From IMG/VR virus record IMGVR_UViG_2734482533_000011: DNA of 6,750 nt; one strand, given 5' to 3'. Under the pieces are notes generated by a model. The model saw nothing but the letters and a program-made list of their open reading frames with translations, made no database searches and was not told the origin of the DNA. Positions 4,005 to 4,550 of this stretch are shown here, piece by piece. Position 1 is the first letter of the stretch; every line of letters starts with the position of its first letter. Origin of the DNA: a virus. Lineage: Duplodnaviria; Heunggongvirae; Uroviricota; Caudoviricetes. Both the position numbers and the translations under genes were made by a program.

Positions 4005-4550
4005 TCAGGAAGAACCTTCCGGAGAGACGGACCATTCAATGGCGTTATATGAGGATTTATCAGTGATGGTGCTGAAATCCATCGCCTGCAGCGATTTCGC
4101 GTAAATACGGTACGCTTTCAGTTTTTCCCGGTCTTCGTCGCTGATTAGCCCCAGCAGCAGGTCTTCTTCCCATTCCCCTGTCCGGGCACTGACCTGAGCC
4201 AGAAGGGCATCACGCTCATCTTCCGCTTTGAGTCTGTAGTCAAAGACAAATTCATCATTGCGGTAAAACCAGTAACCCGGCGCGGTAATGCGGCGGTTGG
4301 CGGTAATATCAGGAACTTCAATAACACTGGCGTTACGGGGTTCAATGCCTGTCACATCCTTACCGACCCACACCACGCGCCCGTCTCCGGTGTAAACCAT
4401 TTTTATGGTGTCACTGGCAAAGTTCTTCTGTTCTTCATACCAGTTTTTGCCGTCTTCCGAAAAAAGCCAGGTGACATCATACTGTTTTGTCAGCTGATAT
4501 TATTCCGCGGTTTTCGGATTACCTGCCGTAATATTTTTTAAATGCAACAT
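4005..4550 (-). pseudogene. Tail-fibre assembly protein (Tfa, Caudovirales TAP family) interrupted by an in-frame TAA at 4502..4500
   Basis: ATG at 4550..4548 (2 nt after the fibre-gene stop) opens [16 protein letters not shown], then TAA, then the same frame continues [38 protein letters not shown]…VIEVPDITANRR… to a stop at 4005. The N-terminal and central motifs match Tfa/TfaE-type chaperones as I recall them. The ORF track only reports the 3' part (4005..4400). Confidence 0.7.

Follow-up and report, generated by a model that had tools for sequence, protein, structure and literature searches.

A premature TAA codon in the tail fibre assembly gene of a phiP27-like prophage remnant in Shigella sonnei

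The minus-strand gene at 4005..4550 of the window (the whole 6,750-nucleotide stretch of DNA that we analysed) is very probably an ordinary nonsense pseudogene in a decaying prophage. PF02413 and Mu U homology identify it as a tail fibre assembly (Tfa) gene of the Mu gpU / phiP27 L55 type, encoding 181 amino acids if codon 17 is read as CAA. Codon 17 is a premature TAA (4500..4502, minus strand); the ancestral codon is CAA (Gln), from which TAA differs by a coding-strand C-to-T change at position 4502. The element is the right arm of a phiP27-like prophage with a Mu-type tail, integrated at ssrA in Shigella sonnei, and the TAA is a genuine allele, common to all related S. sonnei loci that we examined.

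We propose that the C-to-T transition at the invariant Gln17 codon would have inactivated the Tfa gene. Because the prophage is already non-functional by IS1 insertions, the nonsense mutation would be one neutral step in its decay. Inactivation in a decaying prophage was one of the outcomes offered by an earlier, sequence-only reading of this DNA, and the CAA ancestor, the TAA in 24 assemblies and the IS1 lesions all favour it.

A Tfa gene interrupted at codon 17

The minus-strand frame runs from an ATG at 4550..4548 to a TGA at 4007..4005 (182 codons) and contains a single internal stop, the TAA at 4502..4500, in the context GAA TAA TAT. Its translation includes VIEVPDITANRR and ends in SPEGSS. 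The translation agrees with that of the sequence-only reading, and the claim made there of one frame from 4550 to 4005, broken only by this TAA, was reproduced. Upstream of the stop lies an N-terminal stub of 16 codons (4503..4550, minus strand). The next in-frame ATG, GTG or TTG is the ATG at 4400 (codon 51), which opens a 131-codon ORF (4005..4400, minus strand) annotated in S. sonnei Ss046.

The product, once the stop is masked, scores 87.6 bits over residues 40-178 with Pfam PF02413 (Caudo_TAP; cut-off 22.1). It also aligns from residue 1 with phage Mu gpU (PDB 5YVQ chain B; query 1-158 to chain 1-164, E = 8e-39), the only solved relative, whose N-terminus is MMHLKNIKSENPKTKEQYQLTK, with Gln at position 17. 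The assignment to the Tfa-type chaperones therefore stands.

Homology extends across the stop. Among 5.8 billion proteins searched, 800 relatives were found, and the counts that follow use 134 sequences (120 listed matches plus cluster members). The length is exactly 181 amino acids in 111/134, residues 1-19 are almost invariant, and column 17 holds Gln in all 124 homologues that span it, Mu gpU and phiP27 L55 among them; together these three observations place homologous sequence both before and after the TAA. Both sides are 98-100% similar to intact 181-amino-acid proteins, a similarity that, judged by sequence comparison, lies far beyond chance. The sequence-only reading had also raised the prospect that homologues begin at the equivalent of M4400. 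The predominance of 181-residue proteins argues against this, as does position 51 itself, which is Met in 99 of the 134 and I, V or L in 34.

The gene sits directly downstream of a fibre gene on the same strand, as expected for the PF02413 Tfa family, and this order is kept in phiP27 (L54-L55) and in E. coli C311. A functional member of the family is expected to have an uninterrupted ORF of about 175-182 codons. Here the TAA at codon 17 interrupts it, and we have therefore filed the gene as a pseudogene of the family and not as a functional member.

The ancestral codon

The nearest intact gene in complete E. coli genomes is that of FDAARGOS_944 (WP_000902847.1, 181 amino acids). It is identical to the window allele at 542/546 nucleotides, the differences being CAA for TAA at codon 17 and three other bases. 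CAA also occupies codon 17 in CFSAN029787 and in E. coli C311; where the window has its stop, these orthologues have a sense codon. The protein WP_000902847.1, also recorded from S. boydii as ABB65619.1, is encoded between the same flanking fibre and Stf-N genes as in the window; apart from codon 17 it shows A/T and P/S differences near the C-terminus. The FDAARGOS_944 module is followed by an ipaH effector gene, whereas that of the window adjoins ssrA.

On this sequence comparison, a single C-to-T transition would have turned CAA (Gln17) into TAA. The earlier proposal of one CAA-to-TAA change at a Gln or Lys codon is thus borne out by the CAA of the nearest relative and, for the residue, by Gln in 124/124 homologues.

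Distribution of the TAA allele in Shigella sonnei

We sampled loci through neighbouring proteins, blind to codon 17: ten through YmfQ, in NCBI assemblies that are mostly complete chromosomes of 4.5-5.0 Mb, and four through the 422-residue fibre (Stf-N), in draft contigs. The TAA allele was present in 14/14 (10/10 and 4/4), and the Tfa sequence was 100% identical throughout. Ten independent Logan-assembled sequencing runs, chosen through the 131-residue ORF, carry it too, giving 24 independent assemblies in total. The Ss046 reference annotation agrees: the 131-residue ORF is identical to S. sonnei Ss046 AAZ89357.1 ('putative tail fiber assembly protein p37', UniRef Q3YYQ5). The window itself is 100% identical to contig CXMW01000182.1 (GCA_001249495.1), save for a 99-bp deletion. 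The comparison with related strains that the sequence-only reading had called for thus gives TAA in 14/14 S. sonnei-type loci and CAA in E. coli relatives.

These counts bear directly on whether an error of sequencing or assembly put the stop into this record. Two observations lean that way: one base alone separates the stop from the codon of the closest intact allele, and a CAA allele whose protein is otherwise identical has been recorded for S. sonnei (181 amino acids with Gln17, P0002, 18 contigs). Against them stand the TAA in 10 NCBI assemblies, 4 drafts and 10 Logan runs, and the Ss046 reference annotation. An error is scarcely credible, and we reject it; where the sequence-only reading had allowed for a sense codon at 4500..4502, the 24 independent assemblies have TAA.

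An exact 34-mer scan for either allele among GTDB species representatives found no match, which is uninformative because S. sonnei is not a separate representative there. P0005, a 162-residue protein from S. flexneri (524 contigs), was considered as the same TAA allele and rejected, since it has a natural Met20 and other substitutions.

At position 2784 of the window, near the 3' end of the 422-residue fibre gene, the window and 24 draft contigs have T and 10/10 Logan contigs have A, a SNP that may mark a sub-lineage. A few positions distinguish the window from each of nine complete or near-complete assemblies (loci L015-L023).

Fate of the interrupted reading frame

The Tfa start lies 2 nt beyond the stop codon of the fibre gene (4555..4553), the junction reading ...agtatt TAA ca ATG, and its own anti-Shine-Dalgarno (anti-SD) pairing is weak (-3.0 kcal/mol). 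On both grounds translation of Tfa is probably coupled to that of the fibre gene. Ribosomes arriving from the fibre gene would make a 16-residue peptide and be released at TAA-T. A T after TAA makes for strong termination; in E. coli no more efficient stop context is known.

Readthrough or suppression of the TAA, by programmed recoding or an ochre suppressor tRNA, would give full-length Tfa, and the ORF beyond the stop is indeed intact and in frame. A recoding site, however, should be conserved, and none of the 124 homologues, Mu and phiP27 included, has a stop here; all have a plain Gln codon, and only the S. sonnei lineage has the stop. We therefore do not regard it as a recoding site. With the strong TAA-T context, and no tRNA genes within the window besides tmRNA, readthrough is highly improbable, and this option of the sequence-only reading is set aside. 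Past the stop, the ORF stays open and is 100% conserved among S. sonnei genomes. That conservation says nothing about selection, since these genomes are 99.9-100% identical over the entire 6.7 kb.

Three in-frame codons downstream of the stop might allow translation to restart. CTG at codon 20 (window 4493), 6 nt after the stop, has an anti-SD energy of -3.5 kcal/mol and is a very weak start codon; it opens a remnant of 162 codons (4005..4493, minus strand) that several NCBI assemblies annotate as such. ATG at codon 51 (4400), 100 nt after the stop, shows essentially no pairing (-0.2 kcal/mol). GTG at codon 59 (4376) is preceded by GGAG 9 nt upstream and reaches -6.6 kcal/mol. In L015-L028, the TAA-bearing Tfa genes are variously annotated as a 'tail fiber assembly protein' of 162 (CTG), 131 (ATG) or 123 (GTG) amino acids. 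The 162-residue Caudo_TAP annotations lie at 11678..12166 in L015, L016, L019 and L021-L023, and at 2174..2662 in L024; the Tfa gene starts at 11621 in L015, L016 and L019-L023 (2117 in L024), which puts the beginning of these annotations at codon 20. In L017 the Tfa annotation is at 11794-12165. As annotation pipelines pick all three starts in different assemblies, none of them is convincing.

Could such a restart yield a partly functional, N-terminally truncated chaperone? Any of the three products would keep the helical region at residues 105-155, which is confidently modelled and which PMC9608196 describes as a conserved trimerization module. Moreover, CTG20 is close to the TAA and is the choice of pipelines that annotate 162 amino acids, and GTG59 has its GGAG at a suitable spacing. 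All three restarts, however, lose the near-invariant residues 1-19 of the N-terminal fibre-binding domain, and none of the 134 homologues starts naturally at codon 20, 51 or 59, contig-edge partials aside. CTG is, in general, a very poor start codon in E. coli, and ATG51, where the sequence-only reading had placed re-initiation, is let down by its anti-SD energy and its distance from the stop. With the baseplate J gene split by IS1, there would in any case be no virion to assemble. A partly functional truncated chaperone is thus very unlikely, although some truncated Tfa may be made from CTG20 or GTG59. Less likely again is that the TAA allele is a tolerated hypomorph, in which re-initiation at CTG 4493 gives a 162-residue Tfa that still caps or folds fibres without its first 19 residues. 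If that were so, some activity related to tail fibres, such as a surface or tailocin-like role, would be left to S. sonnei; nothing in the analysis speaks for it.

Structure prediction was too poor in the N-terminal domain to refine the restart question, and the sequence alignment to 5YVQ_B was used in its place. An AlphaFold2 model of P0016, an intact protein 98% identical, built from a 33-sequence alignment, has a mean pLDDT of 66, falls below 50 in the N-terminal domain and is confident only in the helices at 105-155. According to PMC9608196, which cites the 5YVQ study, Mu Tfa binds the fibre through its N-terminal domain, and its conserved C-terminal helical part drives trimerization. Under inactivation, our favoured explanation, a functional chaperone would not be made, because products restarted at CTG20, ATG51 or GTG59 would be without the conserved N-terminal part of the fibre-binding domain.

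Prophage context and decay

The right arm of the prophage has the order baseplate J, YmfQ, fibre, Tfa, second fibre, DUF4376, all on the minus strand. The baseplate J/gp47 gene is represented by its 3' part (6170..6667, PF04865); homology ends at 6667, where the gene is cut by an IS1 end inserted at 6668..6750. The YmfQ / Mu gp48-like baseplate gene (5580..6170, PF10076, 89.6 bits) is intact, and its exact protein is widespread. The tail fibre gene (4553..5593, phiP27 L54 position) is open and encodes 346 amino acids from the ATG at 5593, with an ORF extendable to 5605. Anti-SD pairing at 5593 is -6.1 kcal/mol, and 346 amino acids are also annotated in complete genomes; this fibre is the presumed client of the Tfa chaperone. 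The second fibre gene (2713..3981, phiP27 L56 position), with a prophage tail fibre N-terminal domain (PF08400, 212.6 bits), is likewise open and encodes 422 amino acids. It is followed by the DUF4376 gene (2238..2762, phiP27 L57 position), 174 amino acids here and 207 in relatives.

The right end of the prophage abuts ssrA (tmRNA; 1677..2039, plus strand). Between ssrA and the left end of the window lie smpB, ratA and yfjF/ratB, the last abutting an IS end at 1-64 that is multi-copy in E. coli (up to 32 places per genome, 100% identical). Related complete genomes have IS4-family transposase genes at the place of 1-64. The window resembles a short-read contig with an IS end on each side. E. 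coli C311 has a whole prophage at this ssrA site; its tail genes are Mu-like, its head genes HK97-type and its 181-residue Tfa intact.

The sequence-only reading held that the genes flanking Tfa are intact. This is so for the fibre, YmfQ-like and Stf-like ORFs, which are open, but not for baseplate J, cut by IS1 at 6667/6668, nor for DUF4376, which has lost 99 bp in frame. In complete S. sonnei loci L017, L018, L020 and L023, the 5' part of baseplate J (224 amino acids) lies beyond the IS1. With its baseplate J gene split, the prophage was already defective and offers the fibre no tail to join. A second IS1 in the complete S. sonnei genomes (L015-L023) sits between the tape-measure and DNA-circularization genes; the same 84 bases of IS1 end recur there, and IS1 transposase genes are annotated. 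The deletion in the window's DUF4376 gene, near 2415, removes 33 residues (GRIWNAGPDSLGRLSPVVMLAKSVTAQTHMAWG) that are present in 13 S. sonnei loci and in FDAARGOS_944, and the exact 174-residue product has no record in a collection of 15 billion proteins. The two IS1 insertions, the 99-bp deletion and strain-specific indels and deletions in the fibre genes are independent disabling lesions, as expected in a decaying prophage.

Further lesions differ between strains. The 346-residue fibre gene has 1-nt indels in L004 (437; window 4963) and L012 (893; window 4684), the second fibre gene has a 690-bp deletion in L021 (window 2597-3287 missing), and the 422-residue fibre gene is split in L020 (12190-13656). 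These indels, the deletion and the split are ongoing strain-specific decay or, in some cases, assembly errors.

Comparison with phiP27, Mu and K-12 prophages

The closest phage is the Stx2e phage phiP27, whose complete genome is deposited. Its L52-L57 genes follow the order seen here (baseplate J, YmfQ-like, fibre, Tfa, second fibre, DUF4376-type, then the attR end) and share 91.6% DNA identity with the window module over 63%. Its L55 (P27p55) is an intact tail fibre assembly protein of 182 amino acids, 76% identical to the window Tfa and with Q17 present. The fibres differ in length from those of the window (L54 332 amino acids, L56 490), and the window element lies at ssrA and is IS-ridden.

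Mu U (TfaMu, 5YVQ_B) is collinear with the window product from residue 1 to about 158 and is likewise encoded directly after a fibre gene. The two share the N-terminal motif M-HLKNI..NPKT.EQYQLTK, Gln17 included, and a two-domain layout, N-terminal fibre-binding and C-terminal helical, as described for Mu in PMC9608196. Identity is about 44%, and the Mu gene is intact, whereas that of the window has the premature stop. The Mu gene is part of the invertible G segment, which also holds a second fibre/chaperone pair in inverted orientation; the window has a tandem second fibre and DUF4376, and no inverted pair. We considered a remnant of a Mu-style invertible segment and rejected it: a search around the fibre/chaperone pairs for inverted repeats or crossover sites found only short, chance-level repeats, and both fibre/chaperone-like pairs are on one strand.

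The gene is a pseudogenized Tfa/Mu gpU member in a phiP27-like remnant, and its lesion is in no way unusual. The cryptic prophages of E. coli K-12 hold Tfa pseudogenes (for example tfaD, tfaS and tfaX) that have decayed by point mutation or truncation while their neighbours persist. Those are other prophages with other lesions.

Significance

The gene provides a well-documented example of prophage decay in S. sonnei, of little wider importance. IS insertions, nonsense mutations and frameshifts have given each Shigella genome at least 199 pseudogenes, and S. sonnei is diversifying fastest in its IS and pseudogene profiles (PMC7373316). The practical value lies in annotation. The truncated ORF entered GenBank with the Ss046 genome; public records do not mark the gene as a pseudogene and name the remnant inconsistently. 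The single-base lesion could also mark the lineage, provided that the intact allele recorded for some S. sonnei proves to come from the same locus.

Related arrangements of the module

L024 (1-6471), L003 (2581-3716) and L027 carry this module, TAA included; downstream it runs into a divergent 3' end of DUF4376, followed by an ipaH-type (LRR_TTSS + NEL) effector gene and ybhB-bioA, with no ssrA. The left end of L024 has the same IS1 junction as the window, and L027 has a duplicated Stf-N/DUF4376 segment. Such an arrangement points to recombination of two phiP27-like remnants, or to a second copy.

In CP032523.1 (L016 14269-16882), the last ~38 nt of ssrA recur beside the DUF4376 gene and are followed by an integrase-bearing element. 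This repeat is the mark of a second ssrA-targeting element in tandem, and it places the att core at about window 2002-2039.
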